Part shown: positions 14,041-31,404 of the stretch, in pieces | How positions within the stretch are numbered: position 1 is the stretch's first letter | Layout of the letters: each line of letters opens with the position of its first letter | NCBI RefSeq assembly: GCF_900079115.1 | Contig: NZ_LT549890.1 | Coordinates: 1,470,001-1,502,000, forward strand | DNA from: Saccharolobus solfataricus | Lineage (GTDB): Archaea > Thermoproteota > Thermoprotei_A > Sulfolobales > Sulfolobaceae | Length of the DNA stretch: 32,000 bases | Direction of reading: 5' to 3' | Position numbers and translations under genes: made by a program | Notes under the pieces: model-generated | The model's input: only the letters and a program-made list of their open reading frames with translations | Told to the model about the DNA's origin: nothing | The model's database searches: none

Positions 14041-15333
14041 GTGGTATACGGCCTAAATAAACAACAATGGCTAGCAGTGTTCTCTACATGGTTAGGATGG
14101 TTAATGGATGGTTATACTTCTATAGCTTATGCTCTAGTTGCAGTTACTATTTCGAAAATATTTTTCCCTTCAACCATAGGAATTCTAGGTTTAATAGCCA
14201 CTTTTGGAGGATTCGCAGTTGGTGCATTAGCTAGGCCCGTAGGATCTTTAGTGTTTGGAAATTTCATAGGAGATAAGATAGGTAGGAAAAATATGTTAGT
14301 TCTAACGATTTTAGGTTTTTCCTTAATAGCCTCTTCTAAAGCCCTATTACCTTCATACGAAACCGCGGGAATTTTAGCTCCACTATTTCTTTACATCATA
14401 TTATTTGCTGAGGGCATGTTTGCAGGTGCAGAATATGGAGGAGGAACCACATTGGCGTTAGAGTCTGTACCTGTAGGCAAGAGAGGATTTATTGGCTCTT
14501 TTGTGCAAAGTGGTTTTGGTACAGGTTATTTCGTAATATCGTTAGTATACTCAGCTCTGTATAGTATGTTTGGGAATGAAGGATTCCAAACTTTAGGATG
14601 GAGAGTCCTTTTTGCAACTTGCATATTGCCTGGATTAATTACGTTAATAATTAGAAAAATGACAGACGAAAGTCCAATCTTTAAGGATATGAAAAGTGGG
14701 AATGAAGTGGTCAAGATACCTATAAAGGAGTTGTTCAAAATGTCTTATTCCTCAGTATTAATAGGGTTAATGATAACAAGTGGATTGTTATACATAAACA
14801 CTGCTACCTTTTCTTTCTATCCTACAGTGTTGACTATTCAAGGAATACCAGGGACAATTGTGGGATTAAGCGTTGCTATAATAAATTTGGTTTCCCTTTT
14901 TGGAGTTTGGTTTGGCGGATTTCTAGCTGATGTCATTAAAAGGGGAAGAAAAGTTCCAATGCTAATTTATTCAATAATATTCATTTTCACCGTATACCCA
15001 GTTTTGTATCTGGGATTGCTAAAGAACGTGTATTTATCCACTATCGTATTTAGCTTACAAGCATTTTTAGAAGCTATGATATTCTCCACTTTACCTGCAT
15101 TTCTTGCAGAACAGTTTAGTAAAAAATATAGAACTACGGGAGTAGGATTTACATATAATGGGGGAGCAATAGGAGGTGGTTTTGCTATATCTGCTACTTT
15201 AGCGTTATCAACGTACTTAGGCTTACTTTACTCATGGTCGATAAACATTATTATAGCTGGGATAATAATGATAATGGGTATTGTCTTAGCAAAAGAAACT
15301 TATACTGGAAAAGAAGATCCAATTTTGAGGTGA
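14041..15333 (+). CDS. MFS transporter (metabolite:H+ symporter-like)
   Basis: 430 aa, GTG start. Motif A GNFIGDKIGRKNMLVL. About 12 hydrophobic segments. TATA-like tttatatta lies ~25-30 nt upstream of the start. Confidence 0.85.
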   Translation: MVYGLNKQQWLAVFSTWLGWLMDGYTSIAYALVAVTISKIFFPSTIGILGLIATFGGFAVGALARPVGSLVFGNFIGDKIGRKNMLVLTILGFSLIASSKALLPSYETAGILAPLFLYIILFAEGMFAGAEYGGGTTLALESVPVGKRGFIGSFVQSGFGTGYFVISLVYSALYSMFGNEGFQTLGWRVLFATCILPGLITLIIRKMTDESPIFKDMKSGNEVVKIPIKELFKMSYSSVLIGLMITSGLLYINTATFSFYPTVLTIQGIPGTIVGLSVAIINLVSLFGVWFGGFLADVIKRGRKVPMLIYSIIFIFTVYPVLYLGLLKNVYLSTIVFSLQAFLEAMIFSTLPAFLAEQFSKKYRTTGVGFTYNGGAIGGGFAISATLALSTYLGLLYSWSINIIIAGIIMIMGIVLAKETYTGKEDPILR

Positions 15334-18212: not shown

Positions 18213-19283
18213 TTAAGAAAAGGCTAAACTAATTAGAGGCTCTGAAGGGCAATATTTTTCACCCTCCTTAATTATCCATGAGTGTTTTGTTAATTGTGTT
18301 AAATAGTTATAAATTTCTGAGTCAGATATTTCTATTCCCTCTTCCAATTCCAAAGCCCTCTTGACATCACTCCATTTACCGCATTTTGATAAGGTCCTCA
18401 TTATATTTAAATACCTCTTTCTAGCGATTTCTCTGCCATGTAGAAAATTCTCAAATTCCTTTAAGATAAGCTTTTTAGCGTACTCCAATGTTTGATTTAT
18501 TGCAAAATCTAAATTCTTATTATCTAAATAGATAAAACCAAAGTAGGTTAGCCAACCTGGTATTCCTCCAATTTTCTCATAAACGACTTCGTAATCCTTA
18601 AAATCAATATCTGCCTCTTGAAAACCTCTCCTCAAAAACTCTATAGCTTCTTCTCTAGAAAAGGGCTTTAATTCAACCGTTGAAAAGGCTCTCCCGAAAA
18701 GCGGACTTTCTGGATCTTCAACTCTTAAGTAATCGTAAAGCAAACCCATCTCTGAACCACTCATAATAAATTTAATTCGCTTTAAATTATCATACGCATA
18801 AGCTAGTGCTGGTAAAAGATTAACTCCTCTTAACTTAACCAGCTCCTGAGCCTCATCAAGGACAATAATCACATTATCCTTTGATGCCTGCTCAAAGCTC
18901 TCCAATAAATTCGCAAAACTTAACCTATCCTTCCTATTCCAATTGAACTTAATTTCATTTCCCATTATCACAATCCCTTGAATGTTTTTTAGCGCCTTCA
19001 GTAATGAAGGAAGTCTTTTTACCAACTTGTTAATCTCCTTTTGAAGTTCAAGTAGGAAATCCTTATAGGAAATGTAATTTCTCTCTTCGAATTTTCTTAG
19101 ATCCAGATAGATGTAAGGGAGATTTAACTCATTTATTCCTATCTTTATTATGGATGATTTCCCTGTTCTTCTCAATCCTAAAACTAAGGTTATTGGCGCC
19201 CTCAATCCTTTCAACTTCTCAATTTCTTTTTCTCTATCAAAGAAATCTTTTCTGTTATCCTTAGGTGAAGTATCGAATAGCAC
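18213..19283 (-). CDS. Archaeal ATPase (Arch_ATPase/PF01637-like P-loop protein)
   Basis: 356 aa. N-terminal MLFD...FFDREKEIEKL, Walker A GLRRTGKSS, Walker B IIVLDEAQ. GTG start. Confidence 0.8.
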   Translation of the reverse strand: MLFDTSPKDNRKDFFDREKEIEKLKGLRAPITLVLGLRRTGKSSIIKIGINELNLPYIYLDLRKFEERNYISYKDFLLELQKEINKLVKRLPSLLKALKNIQGIVIMGNEIKFNWNRKDRLSFANLLESFEQASKDNVIIVLDEAQELVKLRGVNLLPALAYAYDNLKRIKFIMSGSEMGLLYDYLRVEDPESPLFGRAFSTVELKPFSREEAIEFLRRGFQEADIDFKDYEVVYEKIGGIPGWLTYFGFIYLDNKNLDFAINQTLEYAKKLILKEFENFLHGREIARKRYLNIMRTLSKCGKWSDVKRALELEEGIEISDSEIYNYLTQLTKHSWIIKEGEKYCPSEPLISLAFS

Positions 19284-19761: not shown

Positions 19762-20581
19762 ATGCAAGTTTATGAAACGGGATTCAAAACGGAGTTGAAG
19801 TCCCTCGCTAGTTATTTCATCGTCAATAATCTTAACGTTATCTCCCAAGAGTTGGACACGAGGATCGCGGACGCAGCTCCGTTCCTGTTGACAGGGAACA
19901 GGGAAAAGGAGTACTTGAAGGTCGTTAGGGAAGGAGAGAAGGTGATGAGTCAAGGGGAGAGGAGCTTCAAGTTCTACCCTCACGTGAAAGTTGAGGGAAA
20001 GACTACAATCGTTGCAGTGGACGAGACCGCGATAACCGTGGGAGAGAAGGAGTCGAGGAAGGTGGAAGGATTTCAACTCTACAACGGGAAGAGGAAGGGA
20101 GTTAAGTTGAGGTCCGTGGACTTGGTGTTCCCCTTGAGGTTGTCCCTCCTCGAGGAGATAGCTGACTTGAGAAGCGATACTCCCTCCCAGTTCCTGATGA
20201 GGGCCGTGAGCGAAGTTGCTCAGCACCTCAAGATAGACTACGTTGTTGCTGACGCGGGTTTCCTGAACTTGAAGGTAATCAAGGAGATGCCTGTGAAGAC
20301 CGTGGTAGGAGGTAAGACCAACCTGAAGGGCTTCAAGGAACTCTCCAACGTCTCTCTAACCGAGAAGAAATGCGAGGTAAATGACAGGGTTTACGTTGCG
20401 TATAGGGTCCTGAAGTACAATGACCTTTACTACTATGAAGTGATATACGTCAAGGAGAAACCCAGGCACTTCATCTTCGTTACCAACTTCAATGGAGATC
20501 CCTACAAGCTAGCTGAGCTCTACAGGTTGAGATGGCAGAGCGAAGAGGGCTTCAAGGTCAGGAAGGCCAGGATAAGATACG
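19762..20581 (+). pseudogene. DDE transposase (IS4/ISH3-like), C-terminally truncated at a MITE insertion
   Basis: VAVDETAI (D), YVVADAGF (D), YRLRWQSEEGFK (Y-R-E-K region). The reading frame runs into the MITE and picks up the tail SAFRKFMAYRQRIYH. GC content is visibly well above the surroundings. Confidence 0.75.
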
Positions 20582-20663
20582 TTAGTGCTTTCAGAAAGTT
20601 TATGGCTTATAGGCAAAGGATATACCACTAGATCATAGTCTAAGAACTTTTCCAAAATACTAA
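20582..20663 (+). mobile_element. ~80-bp MITE, copy B
   Basis: ttagtgctttcagaaagtttatggcttataggcaaaggatataccactagatcatagtctaagaacttttccaaaatactaa, identical or nearly so to copy C. Confidence 0.8.
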
Positions 20664-20685
20664 CGAATATAGGTGTGACACAAGG

Positions 20686-21646
20686 GTAGGGGTAATTGGA
20701 ATAGACGTATCAAAAGAACACTTGGTAACAAGTAAGGGGAGGGTGAGGAAATTCACAAACAACGAGAAGGGCTACGAAGAAATACTAACCATGAAGCCAA
20801 ACATCATCGTAATAGAACCCACAGGAGTATACTCAACAAGACCTTGCCAATACTTCAAAGAAAGAGGAGTGAAAGTCCTACTAGTCAGCCTTGTTATGGA
20901 AAGAAAAGGACGTAAGGGGAAAGAAAACAGATTTTTACGACGCAGAAAAACTTGAAAACATGGTAAATAAGGCTAGAGAATACGTTAACAACCCCTTAAA
21001 AGAATTAGTATCACTCTACCTCTTCATGAAGGATGTGCAAACGAAACAAGAGAACAGGTTAAGGAGAGCTCTCTTCCTCGTGAGCGACGAGGAGAAGTTG
21101 AGCGAGGAGAGATTGGAGAAGTTCTCTAAGGGAGACTTCTCTGACGTAAAACTGTATCAACTGGAATACACTGGTACAGTACTACGTGAGATTCAAGTCC
21201 TAGCGAGAACACTACTTCAAACGCGAGAAGAGTTGAAGGAGGTGAGGAAAATGATAGAGGGTAATGTGCCTCAAGACCACGTGTTACTCACGATTCCCGG
21301 AATAGGGAAACTGGCAGCTGGGATTATAATTGGGATTGTGGGTGATATTAAGCGCTTCCCAAGACCTGAATCCTTCGTTGCTTATTGCGGTTTAGACCCG
21401 GTAGTTGAGAGGAGTGGTAGGATTGAGGTTAGAAAGGGTATCTCTAAGAGGGGTAACAAGTATTTGCGTAGCTTGTTTTATTTCCTCGCCGAGACTCAAT
21501 ATTCGCGTAACCCAACTCTCCTTAAGTTCTACGAAGCTCACAAGGATAAACTGAAGGGTAGGAAACTGTACACTGCCTTAGCTAGGAAGTTGGCTAGGAT
21601 AGTGTGGAGTGTTTGGTATAATAATAAGCCTTATGAGGTGAAGTGA
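20686..21646 (+). pseudogene. IS110-family (DEDD) recombinase/transposase, copy 1; no start codon before the conserved N-terminus and at least one frameshift
   Basis: VGVIGIDVSKEH, VIEPTGVY, GKKTDFYDAEKL (shifted frame from ~20900), C-terminal TIPGIGKLAAGIIIGIVGDIKRF...GISKRGNKYLRS. Confidence 0.85.
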
Positions 21647-22009: not shown

Positions 22010-23194
22010 TTATTGCTTAAACACATTCTTAAACACCCACAAGGCGAGGACAATATAACCAAGTAAGAGTTCTGAGACGACTATCACAACGTCCTTTTGT
22101 CCTACCAATAAATCCAGAAAAGACAACAAAATATTCCCCAAAGCACCGAAAATACTGCCTAAGGTCGCGAGTAGGCCGTTATAAGACGCAATAATTTCTT
22201 TAGGTAACTTCATCTGGAAAATAGGACTTGCAAATGAGCTGTAAAGGGTCAAGGAAAGCCAATAAAACACTATAAGGATTAAAGAAAACTGAGGCTGGAC
22301 AAAAGCCAGAGAAACCAAAAGTATCGCGGGGATAAGACCCCTGAAAAATATAAAGATATAATATAGATTATTTCTGTATTTTTCTACCTTAATTTTAGTA
22401 AAAATTAGAAGTGAAATACTACTGTACGCGATTGTCATCGAGTAGTAGATCATGTAGTTGAGGACGAAATAGGACTGTGGAAAAAACACTAGAAAGGTCG
22501 GAAATAGACCGCCTATAAAGTTTGCGAAAAGTGTATCTATGAGGAAGAACGTTATCGCCCGATCCTTTTTAAACGCTGAAATTGAAAGGGAGAAGAGGAG
22601 TTTAGCATTACCAGTGCCTTTAGGGTATTTAATCTTGAAAATTAAAGGAGTATGTATTAACAACATGAATAAGCCGAGGACTAAAAGCAGTGATCTTAAG
22701 CCGATTATGAAAAAGGTTAGGTACAAGAATACGATCGCCGAAGCCGTTCTTACAATGTTTACAGTAATCCACACCACTCTGTACTCTGATGCAGAATTTA
22801 CCAAATTCCTTAATACCTTTACGTGGTTTGTCCCCTTAAAAGAGTGTATGGTGACAATCACAGTATAAGCTAGGAAAATAAAACCTAGTTCAAAACGGTA
22901 AAGGAAATAAAATAGTAAAAAAGAAGTCCCGCTTAACAGTGAAAGTATTAGATCGTACCTCCTAGTGTTTACTATATAATCTGTTAGGAAACCTGATATA
23001 CCGCTCAAATGCCCCAGAACGTAAGAAATGCTGAGTAAAGCTCCTACCAGTAACGGGTTTTTAGTCTGTAAGAAAAGGTAAGCCGGAAATACTGCCGAGA
23101 TGATTATTACAGGCTGTAGAAAGTGCTGTAAAAGGTAAAACTTGACGTTAGTATTAGATAGTATTTTACTCGGCTTCGACTCCAACAACTTCAC
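22010..23194 (-). CDS. Polytopic membrane protein, weakly MFS-like; candidate exporter of the operon product
   Basis: 394 aa, about 10-12 hydrophobic segments. GFLTDYIVNTRRYDLIL is loosely reminiscent of MFS motif A. The start overlaps the radical-SAM gene end by 29 nt. Oligo-T tract after the stop. Confidence 0.7.
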   Translation of the reverse strand: MKLLESKPSKILSNTNVKFYLLQHFLQPVIIISAVFPAYLFLQTKNPLLVGALLSISYVLGHLSGISGFLTDYIVNTRRYDLILSLLSGTSFLLFYFLYRFELGFIFLAYTVIVTIHSFKGTNHVKVLRNLVNSASEYRVVWITVNIVRTASAIVFLYLTFFIIGLRSLLLVLGLFMLLIHTPLIFKIKYPKGTGNAKLLFSLSISAFKKDRAITFFLIDTLFANFIGGLFPTFLVFFPQSYFVLNYMIYYSMTIAYSSISLLIFTKIKVEKYRNNLYYIFIFFRGLIPAILLVSLAFVQPQFSLILIVFYWLSLTLYSSFASPIFQMKLPKEIIASYNGLLATLGSIFGALGNILLSFLDLLVGQKDVVIVVSELLLGYIVLALWVFKNVFKQ

Positions 23195-24185
23195 CTAACT
23201 CATGTAATCTAGGACACCCCCTACTCAACGGTGAAAGGATATATTTAGCCCATCTGTTGATTTTACTTTCATCAAGTACTATGCTTCCATCTTCTTCTAT
23301 GTGGCCTACTGACTCATCATCTATCATTACAGTTAGAGGACATTTAAATAATTTACCATCATTTCTTATAATTATAGAAAACGGATACAGCGCTTGACAT
23401 AAATCATCCATCGCTGGAACACCATCAATTTGAAGTAACGTGTCTTTATCTGGAATATTCAAGCCTAGTTGCGTAGCATACATATATAATTCTTGAATTA
23501 TTTCCATTCTTTTTTTAGGTTCTATGACTTTTAGGTTTTTATCGTTGTCCCCACCAGATCTAGTCACGGGGAAAAAAGTAAAGTAATATCTTCTATCTCT
23601 GCTAAAGTAATTCGACGCTAAGTCTAAGAATTTCTTAATTGAGTCTAAATTATCTGGCATTACGTTTGATCTTATAAACATAAAGAAATTATCAGTTACA
23701 TTTCTTGTTTGAATAAGATTTTCGAATATTTTATCAAACGTAGGCTTACCATTTAATAATGGTCTAAGCTTATCATGAGCATCTTTATAACCATCTATTG
23801 TCACCTGAAATATCTTTACACCTTTTTCTAATAAGATCTTGAATTTTACTATATCTAAGAGGTAACCATTAGTTATAATCTCACCAATTATATCCGTTTT
23901 ATACGTTTTTCCTATCGAATTAGTGAAATCCATAATATCTATAATAGTTTTAAAATCTAGTAACGGCTCTCCTCCATACCATCTGATGTGAACTTTTCTG
24001 AAAAAGCCAGTTTTAATATTATTTTCTAAAAATAATTTTATTCTTTTTGTCATTTCTGATGTAGTTATCATATTTTTAATTTTATAATGGTCATTCTCGT
24101 AGCAGTACACACATCTAAAATTACACCAACTAGATGGAATGATAGTTATCGAAAAAATTTTCTTATCTTGTATTTTTCCTATCAT
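23166..24185 (-). CDS. Radical SAM enzyme with partial SPASM/twitch auxiliary-cluster signature (anSME/peptide-maturase-like)
   Basis: CNFRCVYC (CX3CX2C). GGEPLL SAM-binding motif. C-terminal CQALYPFSIIIRNDGKLFKC equals CX13GX4C. The track start is GTG 24194, but ATG 24185 is preferred because GGTGA (complement of 24191-24195) sits 5 nt upstream. Confidence 0.85.
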   Translation of the reverse strand: MIGKIQDKKIFSITIIPSSWCNFRCVYCYENDHYKIKNMITTSEMTKRIKLFLENNIKTGFFRKVHIRWYGGEPLLDFKTIIDIMDFTNSIGKTYKTDIIGEIITNGYLLDIVKFKILLEKGVKIFQVTIDGYKDAHDKLRPLLNGKPTFDKIFENLIQTRNVTDNFFMFIRSNVMPDNLDSIKKFLDLASNYFSRDRRYYFTFFPVTRSGGDNDKNLKVIEPKKRMEIIQELYMYATQLGLNIPDKDTLLQIDGVPAMDDLCQALYPFSIIIRNDGKLFKCPLTVMIDDESVGHIEEDGSIVLDESKINRWAKYILSPLSRGCPRLHELGEVVGVEAE

Positions 24186-24247
24186 CCCACTCACCTAACT
24201 TACATATATGTATTATTAGGTTTCGGAATTTCGAAATCTTGTATGTG

Positions 24248-24397
24248 TCAGCATGCACTATATAAATCTGAACCTCCTCCTGGCCCAGCTTCACACACTA
24301 TTTCATTCGCTGCTCTTATTTCTGGATGGCGATATATTTCTTCATATATTGGCTCTATTTGTAGTACATTCTCCATAGATTTTATTCTTTTAGCCAT
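24248..24397 (-). CDS. Unlisted 49-aa ORF, candidate RiPP precursor peptide: MAKRIKSMENVLQIEPIYEEIYRHPEIRAANEIVCEAGPGGGSDLYSAC
   Basis: Hand translation of the minus strand. ATG at 24397, TGA at 24250-24248, in-frame stop 3 codons upstream of the ATG. 62 nt upstream of the radical-SAM ATG on the same strand. Below the size cutoff of the ORF track. Confidence 0.5.
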   Translation of the reverse strand: MAKRIKSMENVLQIEPIYEEIYRHPEIRAANEIVCEAGPGGGSDLYSAC

Positions 24398-24419
24398 CGT
24401 TATTTAACTTAGAATTCGT

Positions 24420-24450
24420 CCTTTTTATTTTTTACTATTATAATACCTTA
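24420..24450 (-). promoter_or_regulatory. Possible BRE/TATA region for the small ORF-radical SAM operon
   Basis: The gene strand reads ...ATTATAATAGTAAAAAATAAAAAGgacgaattctaagttaaataacgATG. The A/T box ends ~23 nt before the ATG, compatible with a leaderless or short-leader transcript. Confidence 0.3.
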
Positions 24451-24803: not shown

Positions 24804-25340
24804 CTAGAGTAAAATTCCTCTTTCGTTAGACCTACCCTCTCTAATGTCCTTTAACGAGGCAATTCCCATGGGATTTTTAACTTCCTCAAACACCTTATCG
24901 AAATCTATCTCTATGGATTGGCCTAACTTTTGAAGAATAATGTCCAATTTTTTATTAATCTCTTTCAGTAGTGATGTAATTTCTGAACTATCACTTTTCC
25001 CCTTCTCTTCTTCAGACTGCTGCGCACTATTGGTGCTATTTCTTTCCTGAATACCTTTATCTAATAGTTGGATACTACTACCATTTGACCTTCTTATAAC
25101 ACTTATTATCCCTTCTTTTTCTAGCTCATTTAGTAGTTCCTCAGAAGCCCATTTAACTTTAGATCTCGCTATTTTTCCTCCATGATCCCTTAAATACTTA
25201 ATTAGTTTCTCCTTACTATTCACAATATAATAAATATAAATGGAGATTTTTAACTTAATGGGGTTTGCCTTTAGGAGACTAAGATGGCGAAAGTCCATTC
25301 TTGGAACTGCTATCTTCATTACCTTCATTTCAATTAACAC
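24804..25340 (-). CDS. Hypothetical protein with probable winged-helix DNA-binding domain and coiled-coil tail
   Basis: 178-aa ORF. LIKYLRDHGGKIARSKVKWASEELLNELEKEGIISVIRR is wHTH-like. The true start may be an internal Met (MKIAVPRM / MDFRHL). Flanked by IS remnants on both sides. Confidence 0.45.
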   Translation of the reverse strand: MLIEMKVMKIAVPRMDFRHLSLLKANPIKLKISIYIYYIVNSKEKLIKYLRDHGGKIARSKVKWASEELLNELEKEGIISVIRRSNGSSIQLLDKGIQERNSTNSAQQSEEEKGKSDSSEITSLLKEINKKLDIILQKLGQSIEIDFDKVFEEVKNPMGIASLKDIREGRSNERGILL

Positions 25341-25547: not shown

Positions 25548-26510
25548 ATGGACGTGCTTAGAACACTAAAAAGGAGGATCAGAAAGCTGATCGAAAAGAA
25601 GCCCAAGAACCTAAACGAAACCAAAGCAAGAGGAATATTACTATACTTGAAATGAAAACTAAAAAATAGCCGAGATACTACAAGTACACTTGAGCACAGT
25701 TTACAGATGGATCAACCAATTCGAGAAAGAAGGAGAGAAATGCCTATTCTACAAAGAGAGAAAAGGAAGAAACAAGAAGATAGACGAAAAGGAGATAAAA
25801 GTAGAAGAACTTCAAGGTAAAACCATATGGGAAGCAAAGGCTTATATAGAGGAGAAGTTTCACGTTAAATTAAGCTACGTAACAGCTTGGAGAATAGCTA
25901 GGAAAAGATTGAAAATCCCCTACATATAACAAGAAGAGGCCCTTTAACGCAGATAACATCTTGAGGGATAGACTAAAGGGTGTTATTAAGAAGGGTGTTA
26001 AGGTGTTTTTCACGGATGAGTCCGGTATTCATCACGATCCTTCCAGGAGATTGGGGTTGTATAATGTTCCCGTTGATTATCCCAGTAGGAAGCTTAATGT
26101 TCTCGCTTCTATTCCCTTGTTTGGCGGTGTTCCTTGTTTCATGTTCACCTATTCCAATGTTAATTCCGAGATCTTTGCTGAGTTTCTTCGCTTGTTTAGG
26201 AATTCCGGTCCTATTGTGTTGATCCTTGATAATGCTAAGTTTCACAAGAATGCTTATGTTTTCTCCGTTGCTTCTCAGCTCGGCATTATCTTGCTTTTCT
26301 TGCCTCCGTATTCTCCGGATTTAAACCCTATTGAGTTTGGAAGGACTTGAAGCGTTGGGTTAATACTTATTATAATCTTGAATACACTCTTGATTCGATG
26401 GAGGAGGAGTTCTATTATTTGTTTTTGACGCGTGATTATACAAGCTATTGGGTTAATAAGTTTCGCGACGTGCTCGAGAAACTGGAGGAAGAGGTTAGTA
26501 TGAAACAATT
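25548..26510 (+). pseudogene. IS630/Tc1-mariner-family transposase, interrupted by several frameshifts and stops
   Basis: HTH part ...STVYRWINQFEKEGE. DDE part FFTDESGI, LILDNAKFHKN, LPPYSPDLNPIEF followed in another frame by WKDLKRWVN. Pieces correspond to track ORFs 25690-25929, 25961-26350 and the start of 26347-26820. Confidence 0.85.
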
Positions 26511-26654
26511 TTTATCGATTCTCCTTTATTATTTGTTCTCAAGTTCTATCAAGTTTAATTCATTAACTATTCAGACTTATTCGAGTGTTCTTCTATATTT
26601 TGTATTGGGAAATATTAATTTCTCCTTCGCATCTCCTACGGGGAATTCACGCAA

Positions 26655-26929
26655 AACTAGAGAACGAGTAAAACCAAGTATTACAAGAGAAAAACAAATA
26701 AGCAAGGAAGGAGAAAAACAACATAAGCCCAGTCGCAACATGGGGATAAAAACCCCAGCTAATAGGCTGGCTGTGAAGCCCCTAGAACGATCTAACAAGA
26801 GGGGACAAAACCCCGAGTAGGAGTGCGCAAGTAAATTTTTCTAGGGGCTGAAGGTAGTTAATATTATGCGAGAAAAACGTGGTATTATGATAGTAAAGAA
26901 TATCTCGCATACACGAGCAATATTCTATC
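26655..26929 (+). ncRNA. Structured non-coding leader of IS110 copy 2; candidate bridge/seek-type guide RNA region
   Basis: 9-bp long-range pairing AGCCCCTAG (26777-26785) with CTAGGGGCT (26841-26849). Hairpins GGGGataaaaaCCCC (26742-26756), CCAGCtaatagGCTGG (26755-26770), GGGGacaaaaCCCC (26801-14) and GCGAGA...TCTCGC. The only ORF here is low-complexity. Confidence 0.3.
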
Positions 26930-28073
26930 ATGGAAAGTGAGATTAAGACAAGGGGTTTCGCAATAGACGTTTCAAGGGACAAGTTGACGGTAGCGAAAGC
27001 TGAACTTGTAATAACGCAAGAGAAAAGGGAAGTAGAGGTCAACGAGGTGAGGGAATTCAAGTACGACAACGAGGGAATAGAAGAACTAATCAAATTCCTT
27101 GGCGAATATAAGGAAGGGATAATGGAGTCAACCGGACCGTACTTCTTCTACCTACACGAAGAACTAACAGAAAAGGGATATAAGGTAACATTAATAAATC
27201 CCTTACACTTGAAGGAAGTATTCGGAAAGAAGACCGACAAGCTAGACGCGCAAAGACTGGCAAAAGCCTTCATCCTGGGAGCAGTTAAGGGGTCATACAT
27301 ACCGACCGGGGAAATAAGGGAATTGAGGGAGTTAACGAGGTATAGGGAGAGTTTGATGAGGAAGATAACACAAGTAAAGAACGAGATAAGGAAGTTTCTA
27401 GAAATGGCGGGATACAAGATAGAGCCCTTTGATAAGAGGGGAATAGCGTTGCTGGAGAAGTTAAGTAGGGGAGAAGGGCTGAGCAAGGAGGAAAGGGACG
27501 AGTTGAAGGAGAAGTTAGGGAGAAGTTTGAATGATGCTGAGAAGCTAGCTTTGAAGCAGCTGGTAGACTTACTGAAGAGCTTGGAGGCTATGGTTAAGGA
27601 AGTTGAGGACATGATAATTTCTAAGATTCCTCAGCCTGTGGTCGAGTTGAGCCGGGAGTTGGTTTGATCAGTGCTGCAACCATTTACGCTGAGTTCGGTG
27701 ATGTTTCTCGTTTTTCCAGTTCTAAGGCTGCAAGGGCTTATGCTGGTTTTGCTCCCAGGACTAAGCAGAGTGGTGAGAGCGAGTCTCACTCTGGTATGGG
27801 TAATAAGTATTTGCGTAGGGCTTTTTTCTTGGTTGCTAGGGTTGCTAGGAAGTCTGAACGTTTTAAGGAGTATTACGATAGGCTTGTCTCCAAGTGGAAG
27901 AGTGCTACTAAACTTGTGCTCTTGGTGGGAAGCTTGCTTGTATTTGTTATCACGTTATAAAGGATGGTGTTTACAAGGGCGATGTTAAGAAGAGTTTTAG
28001 GGCACCTAGGGGGAAGGACGTTAACGTTCAAGATGTTGATGTGGGTGATGTGCTGGACTCGTTGTCCCAGTAG
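26930..28073 (+). pseudogene. IS110-family (DEDD) recombinase/transposase, copy 2; two frameshifts
   Basis: FAIDVSRDK, MESTGPYF, GKKTDKLDAQRLAKA. After a frameshift near 27655: PGVGLISAATIYAEFGDVSRF...GMGNKYLRRAF. After a second shift near 27900-27960: KDGVYKGD...SQ*. The stop at 28071-28073 abuts the outer right TIR. Confidence 0.85.
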
Positions 28074-29596: not shown

Positions 29597-30056
29597 CGTC
29601 AAATTCCAATCATTTACTATAAGTTTGTACACAAAATTAAATGTAAAATAAAAATTTTAAAGTTTGACGCAAGATAATTAAGAGCGATAATTTTTGGGCA
29701 TTGAATTAGAGGACATAAGAGAAGCAATTGAGAGGGCTATCGTTAAAGAGTGAATAGCATTTATATTAGAAAATTATTGCACTTGATAATTTTTAATGAG
29801 CACTTTCCTTAAGATTCAGACTTATTTCAAGATGGACAATATGTACTAACAGTCTTACTATAAAAATATTATGATTTTAAACATAATTTTATTAAAAACT
29901 ATCTAATCCTAGGATTTTACGTAAAATGCTAAGTGAAACATTTGACTTTCCTGGAATCTCGCTTTTTCTGTCAATTCTTCCGGAAAAGTTGATAGCATAC
30001 TGTCAAAATTTATTTAAATCTTGACACTAACTATTGTTGTGTCATACATTTCACAG

Positions 30057-31404
30057 ATGAGCTTCCAAAACCCTTGGTGGGTTGATAAGAACAGGATACT
30101 TGAAGATGAACACGTGAAAAGGGCAAGGGTCATAGTACCACCAATCGATGAGAGTGCTTTGATATTAGGACCTAGGCAAGTGGGTAAAACTACTTACCTA
30201 AAGACTACCATAAAGACCTTGCTTGAGAGGGTAGACTCTAGGTCAATTCTCTTCTTCTCTTGTGATGCGTTTTCCAAGAAGGAGGAGTTAATAGGTTTAG
30301 TTAACGAGTACAGAACGTTAGTCAATAGGGAGGAAAGTGCGTACATATTTTTAGATGAAATAACTTCAGTGAGCGATTGGAATACAGCTTTGTTACACTT
30401 GTTCAATGCTGGTTACTTTAACAACTCATTGGTTTACGTCACTGGTTCTTCCTCTATAAATTTGAGGAAAGAGATGCTACCGGGGAGACCCATAAAGAAG
30501 TACGTGTTTTATCCCTTGAATTTTAGAGTTTATTTCGACAGTTTTTATAAAAAATTAATACAAGATCACGTGAAAGTTGACGAAAAGGATGAGCTTTACG
30601 AAAACGCTTTGAAGCTTTTACCATATATTTCAGAATTAAACAAGGCCTTATTGGAATACGTTAGGCGAGGGGGTTTCTTCGCGACTTCATTTTCCGAAAA
30701 CCCATTATCGCTTTACGAGACTTATAAGGACGCTATACTTTCAGAGTTTTTAAAAACTGAGAGAAAGGAGAGCGTGTTTAAGGTAATTATTAGGAAAATA
30801 ATTGAGAGCTATGGTAGTAGGATTTCTGAAAACACTAGTGCTTTCAGAAAGTTTATGGCTTATAGGCAAAGGATATACCACTAGATCATAGTCTAAGAAC
30901 TTTTCCAAAATACTAACTATTGCTAAAGACGTTAATGTTTCCCACACCACTGTTGGCGACTATTTAGACGTTTTGGAGAAGTTGTTCATTATAAGGACTT
31001 TTAGGAAGAGAGAGAAAGGGGGAAAGACTAATTATAGGAGTTTGAAGAAGGTGTATTTCATAGACCCCTTCTTCTTTAGGGTAATGAAGATTTATAGTGT
31101 TGGCAAAGACGTAGATGACAATGAGATACCTTTGATCATTGAGGGAATTGTTGGTGAGCATTTGGCAAGGGAATACAAAGAGGTTGGCTATTTACACTTC
31201 AAGAGCGGAAAGGAGGTTGACTTCTCTGTTGGTAATGTAAAAGTTGAGGTTAAGTGGAGAGAGAAAGAGAGGAAGAGATATAACAACGTTAACTACGTTT
31301 TAACTATTGATGAGTTTAAGAAAAGCGATGAGCAACTAACTTTGCCAGTCTCAATTTTCCTCTATTTAATCTCCTCTAACAAGACCTTTTATGAGTTAAC
31401 GTAA
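30057..31404 (+). pseudogene. AAA_14/DUF4143-type archaeal ATPase gene split by a MITE insertion
   Basis: N-half has NPWW, Walker A GPRQVGKTT, Walker B IFLDEITS. C-half, open from 30892 in a different frame, reads ...IAKDVNVSHTTVGDYLDVLEKLFIIR (wHTH) and DUF4143-like EVDF. The N-half ends in the MITE-encoded tail SAFRKFMAYRQRIYH. ATG 30057 is preferred over TTG 30021. Confidence 0.8.
30836..30916 (+). mobile_element. ~80-bp MITE, copy C, inside the ATPase gene
   Basis: Same sequence as 20582-20663. Flanked by ACTA on both sides (30834-30837 and 30916-30919). Confidence 0.8.

Follow-up and report, generated by a model that had tools for sequence, protein, structure and literature searches.

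A candidate three-gene operon for a radical-SAM-modified peptide in Saccharolobus solfataricus

We analyzed a 32,000-nucleotide (nt) stretch of Saccharolobus solfataricus DNA (contig NZ_LT549890.1, positions 1,470,001 to 1,502,000; hereafter, the window), in which a small open reading frame (ORF) of 49 amino acids (aa), a gene for a radical S-adenosylmethionine (SAM) enzyme, and the polytopic membrane protein gene SSO1550 follow one another (Table 1). A sequence-only reading had proposed that they form an operon for a ribosomally synthesized peptide with post-translational modifications (RiPP). All three co-directional minus-strand ORFs were found at the positions given there, and the GGTGA motif was indeed well placed before the ATG of the enzyme gene. 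The small ORF had been called unlisted; it is a real ORF, but newer S. solfataricus annotations hold it as the hypothetical protein WP_009992855.1. The interval from the peptide stop to ATG 24185 does measure 62 nt, but it is not a true spacer: the peptide gene once had its 3′ end there. The start of SSO1550 is uncertain (GTG 23194, TTG 23188, or TTG 23185), and the claimed overlap of 29 nt with the enzyme gene holds if GTG 23194 is used but becomes 23 or 20 nt with the respective TTG starts.

The mechanical start of the radical-SAM ORF was GTG 24194, which lies inside the GGTGA motif. The gene most likely starts at ATG 24185, giving the 339-aa form called in public genomes, and the 342-aa GTG-start form was without a record in an exact protein look-up. 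GGTGA motifs stand before both the second and the third genes, and the one before the enzyme gene was kept in the related loci of Stygiolobus (L001), Sulfolobus sp. S-194 (L004), and contig L017. The peptide gene has no Shine-Dalgarno motif of its own. The A-rich box upstream of it, assigned by eye, is a candidate promoter for a transcript with a short leader or none; L004 and L017 have kept this A-rich block together with the TAAGTTAAATAACGATGG that follows it. The membrane gene is translationally coupled to the enzyme gene. A second copy of the peptide was not found within the window, and an Rfam scan of the whole window gave zero matches.

Table 1 Features of the three-gene locus and of the surrounding mobile elements, in window positions.
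Feature	Position	Strand	Details
Small ORF, putative precursor-peptide gene	24248..24397	(-)	ATG start, 49 aa, MAKRIKSMENVLQIEPIYEEIYRHPEIRAANEIVCEAGPGGGSDLYSAC
Radical-SAM peptide-maturase-like gene	23166..24185	(-)	339 aa, UniProt Q97Y04, AAK41767
Polytopic membrane protein gene SSO1550	22010..23194	(-)	394 aa, AAK41766
Derived premature TGA	24248..24250	(-)	TGG (Trp) in relatives, Leu in L006
Former C-terminal peptide tail	24200..24247	(-)	HIQDFEIPKPNNTYM + TAA at 24202-24200
A-rich B recognition element (BRE)/TATA-like box, candidate promoter	24420..24435	(-)	GTAAAAAATAAAAAGG, ~23-38 nt 5′ of peptide ATG
GGTGA Shine-Dalgarno-like motif	24191..24195	(-)	5 nt 5′ of radical-SAM ATG
DDE_Tnp_1 transposase	19762-20631
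IS110-family C-terminal fragment (Transposase_20)	20891-21646
Split IS630-like element	HTH_32, 25690-25929; DDE_3, 25961-26350		Upstream of the three genes
IS110-family N-terminal domain	26930-27667

In Sulfolobus sp. S-194, an ORF 5′ of the orthologous enzyme gene matched the small ORF with 71% identity (tblastn, E 2e-19). Against S-194, the ratio of non-synonymous to synonymous substitution rates (dN/dS) of the small ORF was 0.15 by Nei-Gojobori counts. Differences at codon positions 1, 2, and 3 numbered 9, 7, and 22 over 60 codons (binomial p = 0.0016), and the AKRIKS and CEAGPGGG stretches differed solely by synonymous changes. A profile search of 5.8 billion proteins gave matches confined to the peptide's own family. 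These results indicate that the 49-aa ORF is a real gene. A 106-aa ORF on the plus strand (24087-24407), antisense to the peptide gene and the enzyme start, is probably spurious, the codon-position pattern favoring the minus-strand frame.

Four further variants of the peptide were compared with that of S. solfataricus (P0087, 49 aa): those of S-194 (P0088, 63 aa), an Acidianus-like contig (L006; P0089, 72-73 aa), and L017 (P0090, 63 aa), obtained via profile search, and P0095 (67 aa), added via cluster look-up. The leader (approximately residues 1-34) was near-identical among the close variants P0087, P0090, and P0095. Two cysteines, Cys35 and Cys49, were invariant in five of five variants and bound a core loop of 11-15 residues, which reads EAGPGGGSDLYSA (13) in S. 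solfataricus, EAGPIAGLYSA (11) in L017, EAGPIGKGNPDLYSA (15) in P0095, EAGPGGGGLYSS (12) in S-194, and ADPGGPNCGYPTSA (14) in L006. The loop sequence differed between variants, and all loop indels were in frame. By its sequence, the peptide would thus fall among RiPP precursors, which usually pair a leader that is conserved with a core that varies.

The peptide gene was located directly 5′ of the enzyme gene in S. solfataricus strains, L017, S-194, and L006. The enzyme of L006 is ca. 58% identical to the window enzyme, and a 73-aa Cys-rich ORF ends 38 nt before it. This ORF and the window peptide have I(R/S)AAN and C-x-x-PGG...Y..SAC in common, and the observed semi-global score of the pair was reached by 18 of 20,000 shuffles. 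Because of the shuffle test and the positional conservation, we accept with moderate confidence that the two peptides are homologous. Beyond S. solfataricus, a short ORF that evolves as coding sequence is kept 5′ of the enzyme orthologue in three lineages, L004, L017, and L006, as the sequence-only reading would have it. We also considered whether the 49-aa ORF is a frameshifted relic of a lost N-terminal RiPP recognition element (RRE). This was rejected because the ORF shows purifying selection of its own and a Cys-bounded variable loop, and is further excluded by its own stop in relatives and by the naturally short form of the nearest enzyme homologues, P0001 and P0004.

The site of the TGA that ends the S. 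solfataricus peptide (24250-24248) is TGG in P0088, P0090, and P0095, which read ...SACWHIQDF... and have the tail WHIQDF(E/K)IPKPNN(TYM). L006 has Leu at this site and reads ...SACLSIPDPKKR, with the tail LSIPDPKKR. Because all other variants carry a sense codon there, the S. solfataricus stop is derived (TGG to TGA). Beyond it, the window frame continues for 15 codons to a TAA (Table 1). Compared with S-194, this tail showed 4 synonymous and 1 non-synonymous differences (omega of ca. 0.02), and on that count it was formerly coding and constrained. In L017, the tail translation is identical, the frame is open, and the stop lies 17 nt before the enzyme ATG, as did the ancestral peptide stop. 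The last ca. 35 nt of the tail were still recognizable in Stygiolobus L001. The truncated precursor retains the whole leader and both invariant cysteines.

The enzyme belongs to the radical SAM superfamily (PF04055; 61.8 bits against a cut-off of 29.5, E 1.2e-16). In an alignment with 77 homologues, the CX3CX2C motif at C21/C25/C28 and the GGE SAM-binding motif at G71-G72-E73 occupied invariant or near-invariant columns, and the enzyme retained all family-wide conserved residues. The top NCBIfam families were TIGR04463, CefB, FlmE/OhkG, geopeptide, and PapB (E values from 3.7e-42 to 6.9e-27), and the best 25 matches were mostly peptide maturases, Clo7bot and SCIFF also among them. The scores were below every curated equivalog cut-off: TIGR04463 (rSAM_vs_C_rich), 144.6 bits against 525; NF038107 (CefB), 119 against 600; NF052473 (FlmE/OhkG), 112.7 against 500; TIGR04280 (geopeptide), 110.2 against 400; NF047865 (PapB), 94.5 against 340; TIGR03974 (SCIFF maturase), 74.3 against 425; TIGR03942 (anaerobic sulfatase-maturating enzyme, anSME), 61.4 against 349; and the MoaA model, 45 against 284. 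No membership in any of these NCBIfam families, anSME included, can be claimed. The TIGR04463 alignment spans profile positions 78-373 of 438 and so leaves out both the N-terminal domain and the part that binds clusters at the C-terminus.

The AlphaFold2 model of the enzyme (predicted local distance difference test, pLDDT, 90.5; predicted template modeling score, pTM, 0.90) consists of alternating strand and helix elements. CteB was the top PDB match both by sequence (phmmer, 4.6e-14) and by fold, and further fold matches were anSME, ChlB, SkfB, the peptide epimerase EpeE, and MoaA. Taken together with the profile matches, the sequence places the enzyme in the peptide-maturase clade.

Two departures from the usual maturase form were found. 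At the N-terminus, 20 residues precede CX3CX2C in the window enzyme, compared with 90-135 residues (the RRE region) in most homologues. The enzyme does not have the form of an RRE-dependent maturase, and the DNA upstream of it encodes the peptide and not a lost domain. The second concerns the C-terminus. A SPASM domain is defined by CX9-15GX4C, a gap, CX2CX5CX3C, a gap, and C, and holds two auxiliary clusters; a Twitch domain is a truncated SPASM (β-hairpin and helix) with one auxiliary cluster (PMC6231123). The window enzyme has C263-X13-G-X4-C282, with a hairpin at E270-273/E278-280 in the model, and one more Cys in GCPRL, whose counterpart in the alignment is the last Cys of CX2CX5CX3C. Missing are the CX2CX5CX3C block and the Cys that closes the SPASM motif, although most homologues carry the full set, and PF13186 had no match in the Pfam scan. 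The three Cys positions presumably all ligate the first auxiliary cluster, as in the anSME structure, the ligands of the second being missing. By the definition above, the domain appears Twitch-like and not SPASM, and cluster binding is predicted. An open iron site has been described for CteB, SkfB, and MoaA (PMC6231123); by analogy, the window enzyme, with only three protein cysteines, may have one as well. The three auxiliary cysteines are kept in the S-194 (L004) and L006 orthologues and in P0001 and P0004, for which reason we rejected a recent decay of a SPASM domain in S. solfataricus. The auxiliary-cluster signature of the sequence-only reading thus stands for the first-cluster half of the SPASM motif and falls for the rest. 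Likewise, the likeness to peptide maturases was borne out, and in place of the canonical SPASM/RRE form the enzyme has a short, Twitch-like, RRE-less one.

The closest homologues of the enzyme, P0001 (331 aa) and P0004 (334 aa), share its short architecture at 32-35% identity. Upstream of P0001 stand five ORFs in tandem, each of 71-78 aa (L008 227-978 and a longer JGI contig). Three of the five are readable, are near-identical, and end with ...NVNC(S/T/N)(T/K/S)CATN(V/L/F)YCPPKA. This locus looks like an uncharacterized RiPP cluster in which several precursors are served by a minimal maturase of the same kind. The ORF preceding P0004 ends with ...KTCGGHCGDSNCG, in fuller form ...LKTCGGHCGDSNCG, and P0002 precedes a 53-aa ORF and a Nif11-like ORF. 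Because P0001, P0004, and P0002 adjoin small Cys-rich or Nif11-like ORFs, the nearest relatives examined appear to behave as maturases of Cys-rich short peptides. The short RRE-less form, shared with P0001 and P0004, is a real subfamily. The first homologue search returned nothing above 35% identity because the 90%-identity cluster to which the window enzyme belongs has a pseudogene fragment as its representative (113 aa, Stygiolobus sp. CP850M). Many members of this cluster are 70-113-aa fragments from hot-spring metagenomes, which shows that broken copies occur commonly in nature.

For SSO1550, a word-indexed search yielded five matches, and so did an exhaustive profile search across 1.84 billion representatives. 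Close Sulfolobales relatives or fragments made up all of them, and SSO1550 constitutes an orphan family. Against MFS_1 (PF07690), the model of the major facilitator superfamily (MFS), it scored 6.8 bits (E = 3.7; cut-off 33.4 bits), the best of its five homologues reached E 0.065, and no PDB sequence matched. By contrast, a true MFS transporter gene is present at window positions 14041-15333 (+) (PF07690, E 4.1e-28). The AlphaFold2 model of SSO1550 (pLDDT 45.8) was too poor for fold comparison; hydropathy and this low-confidence model indicate an all-helical protein with ca. 6+6 segments around a basic central loop. An SSO1550-like gene is intact without the enzyme or the peptide in Acidianus hospitalis, in the Stygiolobus type, and in three contigs of one environmental lineage (L005 202-2470, L022 1165-3490, and L023 658-3037; 58-62% identical), and this persistence fits an independent or protective role. 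In these three contigs, it lies ca. 530 nt downstream of genes for an ATP-binding cassette (ABC) ATPase and two hydrophobic permease-like proteins. This pairing with an ABC-type exporter may hint at the role of the membrane protein. Of the membrane exporter claimed by the sequence-only reading, the polytopic membrane protein was retained; the exporter is unproven, since no family match is significant and the gene persists without its partners.

The state of the three genes across Sulfolobales was mapped by anchoring on the membrane gene, with Stygiolobus caldivivus KN1 left out; an exact look-up gave no record for S. caldivivus P0083. In S. solfataricus strains, the 49-aa peptide is accompanied by an intact enzyme and an intact membrane gene, except for contig L013, in which the membrane gene is frameshifted. 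The enzyme was 100% identical and intact in three loci rechecked by tblastn, and the full 339-aa call was present in eight of the eight loci shown. L017 encodes the 63-aa peptide and an enzyme that is intact over the 230 available residues, and the membrane gene is not on the contig. In Sulfolobus sp. S-194, the peptide gene has a 1-nt insertion just past the ATG, the enzyme at least three frameshifts, and the membrane gene is broken. In Stygiolobus sp. CP850M and in four hot-spring contigs from JGI, the peptide is cut to its last ca. 11 codons (homology with the window ends near 24235) and the enzyme is frameshifted in every copy, with several frameshifting indels per copy, in-frame stops in L001 and L019, and, in L001, a Phe in place of one radical-SAM cluster Cys; the membrane gene is intact in three of these loci and broken in two. 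The Acidianus-like L006 has a 73-aa peptide, an intact membrane gene, and one enzyme frameshift, which may be an assembly error since L006 is a single-run assembly. A. hospitalis retains only the last 48 codons of the enzyme gene and no peptide gene beside its intact membrane gene, and in L005, L022, and L023, both are absent and the intact membrane gene stands beside the ABC-type exporter. By these patterns, the system is accessory and often lost: in most relatives decay has struck the enzyme, the precursor, or both, and the membrane protein persists longer than its two partners.

A co-oriented short precursor gene adjoining the enzyme gene is conserved across the orthologous loci, as in RiPP clusters. 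We consider it likely that the three genes form a Sulfolobales-specific operon for a RiPP. The unit of short precursor, radical-SAM enzyme, and membrane protein in the sequence-only reading is upheld here; its canonical maturase is not, its exporter is unproven, and a present-day product is uncertain. The precursor would consist of a leader of ca. 34 residues, a core formed by the Cys35...Cys49 loop, and an ancestral C-terminal tail of 15 residues. The enzyme would split SAM at the CX3CX2C [4Fe-4S] cluster into a 5′-deoxyadenosyl radical, which would take a hydrogen from a residue that lies within the variable loop or close to it. Bonding of the resulting carbon with the Cys35 or Cys49 sulfur would then close a thioether macrocycle of the sactipeptide/ranthipeptide type across the loop. 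The single auxiliary cluster with its three protein cysteines would accept an electron and possibly hold the substrate thiolate, and its open iron site could take a substrate cysteine, as in CteB. The 12-helix-like membrane protein would most likely export the product, protect the producer, or both. The Cys thioether, suggested indirectly by the two invariant cysteines and by thioether synthases being the nearest families and structure, is tentative, with an even chance at best, and whether the S. solfataricus copy still yields a product could go either way.

Several observations weigh against the operon being a RiPP unit of this kind. The enzyme is far below every equivalog cut-off, and therefore its reaction is not transferable by homology. 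It has no RRE, no separate RRE protein was identified, and leader recognition is unexplained; a leader peptidase gene was not found nearby either. The S. solfataricus precursor is shortened by 15 C-terminal residues relative to all relatives, and the match between the L006 and window peptides was marginal in BLASTP (E = 0.013). Since at least five other lineages carry the enzyme only as a pseudogene, the product is dispensable, and in S. solfataricus too the unit may be on its way out. Since the membrane gene stays intact without the enzyme or the peptide, its job is not strictly peptide-dependent.

Among the alternatives, the one that survives best is that the operon is a relic, an ancestral RiPP unit that no longer works in S. 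solfataricus because the TGA removed a needed tail, the enzyme and membrane genes simply having not yet decayed. The derived stop, the strong purifying selection once acting on the lost tail, the enzyme pseudogenes of the Stygiolobus type, S-194, L006, and A. hospitalis, the frameshifted membrane gene of L013, and the insertion sequence (IS) elements around the locus are all consistent with it. However, the three rechecked S. solfataricus loci all have an intact enzyme with 100% identity, which keeps every family-conserved residue, and the leader and both invariant cysteines have outlasted the truncation. Many RiPP precursors, moreover, end at or near the last modified residue. We therefore regard a relic as unlikely, though as a serious contender.

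It is quite improbable that the enzyme acts on a protein, the membrane protein itself, or a small molecule, with the small ORF being a regulatory upstream ORF or unrelated. Such a substrate would accord with an enzyme that has no RRE domain and is under all equivalog cut-offs, and the Twitch-type radical-SAM enzymes include MoaA and BtrN, whose substrates are not peptides (PMC6231123), MoaA being among the fold matches. Nevertheless, the top sequence and fold neighbors modify peptides or proteins, the anSME and MoaA models matched at 61 bits against 349 and 45 against 284, and the three nearest relatives examined, from unrelated organisms, each adjoin small Cys-rich or Nif11-like ORFs. The Stygiolobus-type loci have lost the peptide (to its last ca. 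11 codons) and the enzyme together. Among the scanned or Pfam-labeled neighbors in the window and the related loci, there was no sulfatase, the example that the sequence-only reading gave of a linked protein substrate that would refute it, nor was any other protein substrate linked to the unit, and no cofactor-pathway genes were found among the scanned or annotated neighbors of these loci.

Even less probable is a peptide that serves as the precursor of an intracellular redox cofactor like pyrroloquinoline quinone (PQQ) or mycofactocin, to which the sequence-only reading had also likened the product. A short peptide and a SPASM/Twitch-type radical-SAM enzyme do open the PQQ and mycofactocin pathways, and these families are of the same superfamily (PMC6231123), but cofactor precursors keep their reacting residues fixed, and the hypervariable core loop, which differs in length and sequence among close relatives as loops of secreted RiPPs typically do, is a poor fit. 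No PqqD/MftB chaperone, peptidase, or oxidase is among the accompanying genes, neither PqqE nor MftC is among the 25 best NCBIfam matches, and the frequent pseudogenization speaks against a core metabolic role. Finally, the idea that the 49-aa ORF arose as an open frame by chance in AT-rich DNA between genes, as its lack of a Pfam or NCBIfam match and of a Shine-Dalgarno motif and its absence 5′ of the Stygiolobus enzyme pseudogene might suggest, is effectively refuted by the dN/dS of 0.15 and the third-position excess, and is also opposed by the in-frame loop indels and by the position and orientation kept across four lineages.

The three genes are embedded in IS debris (window positions 19762-21646 and 25690-27667; Table 1). 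A 30-nt direct repeat, 83% identical, was found at 21442-21471 and 27789-27818, and together with the IS110 fragments it indicates that IS110-type sequences bracket the locus. The repeat search around the locus otherwise gave solely IS-related and AT-rich chance repeats. Among the latter, an AT-rich 34-nt inverted repeat (22892-22925/24425-24458, 76% complementary), with one arm within the membrane gene and one upstream of the peptide gene, is probably due to chance. Directly upstream of the peptide gene and co-directional with it is a 178-aa ORF (24804-25340, minus strand) with a helix-rich middle. It was set aside as a stand-alone RRE or regulator of the unit because it has no Pfam match and occurs in S. 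solfataricus loci only, although it could be a regulator. Further away, archaeal ATPase genes are located at 18213-19283 (-), with ATPase_2 and an MCM_C winged-helix domain, and at 30021-30884 (+), with AAA_14. Such archaeal ATPases often go with mobile or defense regions in Sulfolobales.

The candidate RiPP operon lies in a much-studied laboratory archaeon and is directly testable. A minimal maturase with no recognition domain and one auxiliary cluster would probably be missed by SPASM- or RRE-based mining, and since the short form also stands beside tandem precursors elsewhere, defining it could widen RiPP mining. The decay series from the intact unit through the truncated precursor and the pseudogene to the lone membrane gene informs on the loss of accessory systems and on the possible retention of a resistance function. 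If the S. solfataricus copy is inactive, its practical value falls to serving as a template from which the ancestral 65-aa precursor could be resurrected. A bolder and improbable proposal is that the three genes encode an unrecognized archaeal peptide antimicrobial or signal with a novel mode of leader recognition, the orphan membrane protein being the immunity or export determinant. If so, a Cys-bounded macrocycle would be closed without an RRE or a second auxiliary cluster, a mode undescribed for radical-SAM maturases, and this at ca. 80 °C in an aerobe. The survival of the membrane protein in Stygiolobus, Acidianus, and the ABC-exporter contigs would then mark resistant non-producers.

The sequence-only reading held that such systems are essentially uncharacterized in Sulfolobales, and our literature searches agree: they turned up no Sulfolobales radical-SAM RiPP, no characterized radical-SAM-modified peptide from any other crenarchaeon, and nothing on SSO1550 or SSO1551. 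Comparison is with systems from elsewhere, the nearest being CteB (by fold), SkfB (as a Twitch precedent), and the short homologues P0001 and P0004. In its proposed working, the unit is like sactipeptide and ranthipeptide systems, in which a Cys sulfur forms a thioether to the α-carbon (sacti-) or to the β/γ-carbon (ranthi-), but its enzyme falls outside the SPASM, RRE, and equivalog classes. The best structure match of the window enzyme was the SCIFF-type thioether synthase CteB (PDB 5WGG and 5WHY; fold E 3.6e-15, TM-score 0.68-0.70 on the query). In both, the radical-SAM core is followed by the CX9-15GX4C hairpin, and both are encoded beside a short Cys-containing precursor. The first auxiliary cluster of CteB has fewer than four protein cysteines (PMC6231123), and the same is plausible for the window enzyme. 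The two differ in that the window enzyme has no N-terminal RRE (20 residues before CX3CX2C compared with ca. 100), no CX2CX5CX3C...C block, and no second auxiliary cluster, and their identity is ca. 19%.

SkfB (PDB 6EFN) is a thioether-forming Twitch RiPP maturase with a single auxiliary cluster and an apparent open site (PMC6231123). It was a fold match to the window enzyme (E 1.4e-10); unlike the window enzyme, it has an RRE domain and CX33CXC cluster ligation, and it was absent from the phmmer matches at E <= 0.001. SSO1550 resembles MFS transporters in its length (ca. 390 aa), its helical character, its ca. 6+6 segments, its basic central loop, and its UniRef label 'MFS transporter', but differs from them in its lack of a significant PF07690 or PDB sequence match and in having five relatives among 1.84 billion representatives. 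TIGR04463, CefB, FlmE/OhkG, geopeptide, and PapB, which are families of maturases of Cys-containing short peptides, align with the window enzyme over the radical-SAM core and the first half of SPASM. The loci of P0001 and P0004 differ in being metagenomic and probably from outside Sulfolobales, with unrelated precursors and no adjacent SSO1550-like protein. Like the window enzyme, however, P0001 and P0004 are RRE-less, carry C-X13-G-X4-C ... C-P, and lie 3′ of small ORFs with Cys-rich ends.

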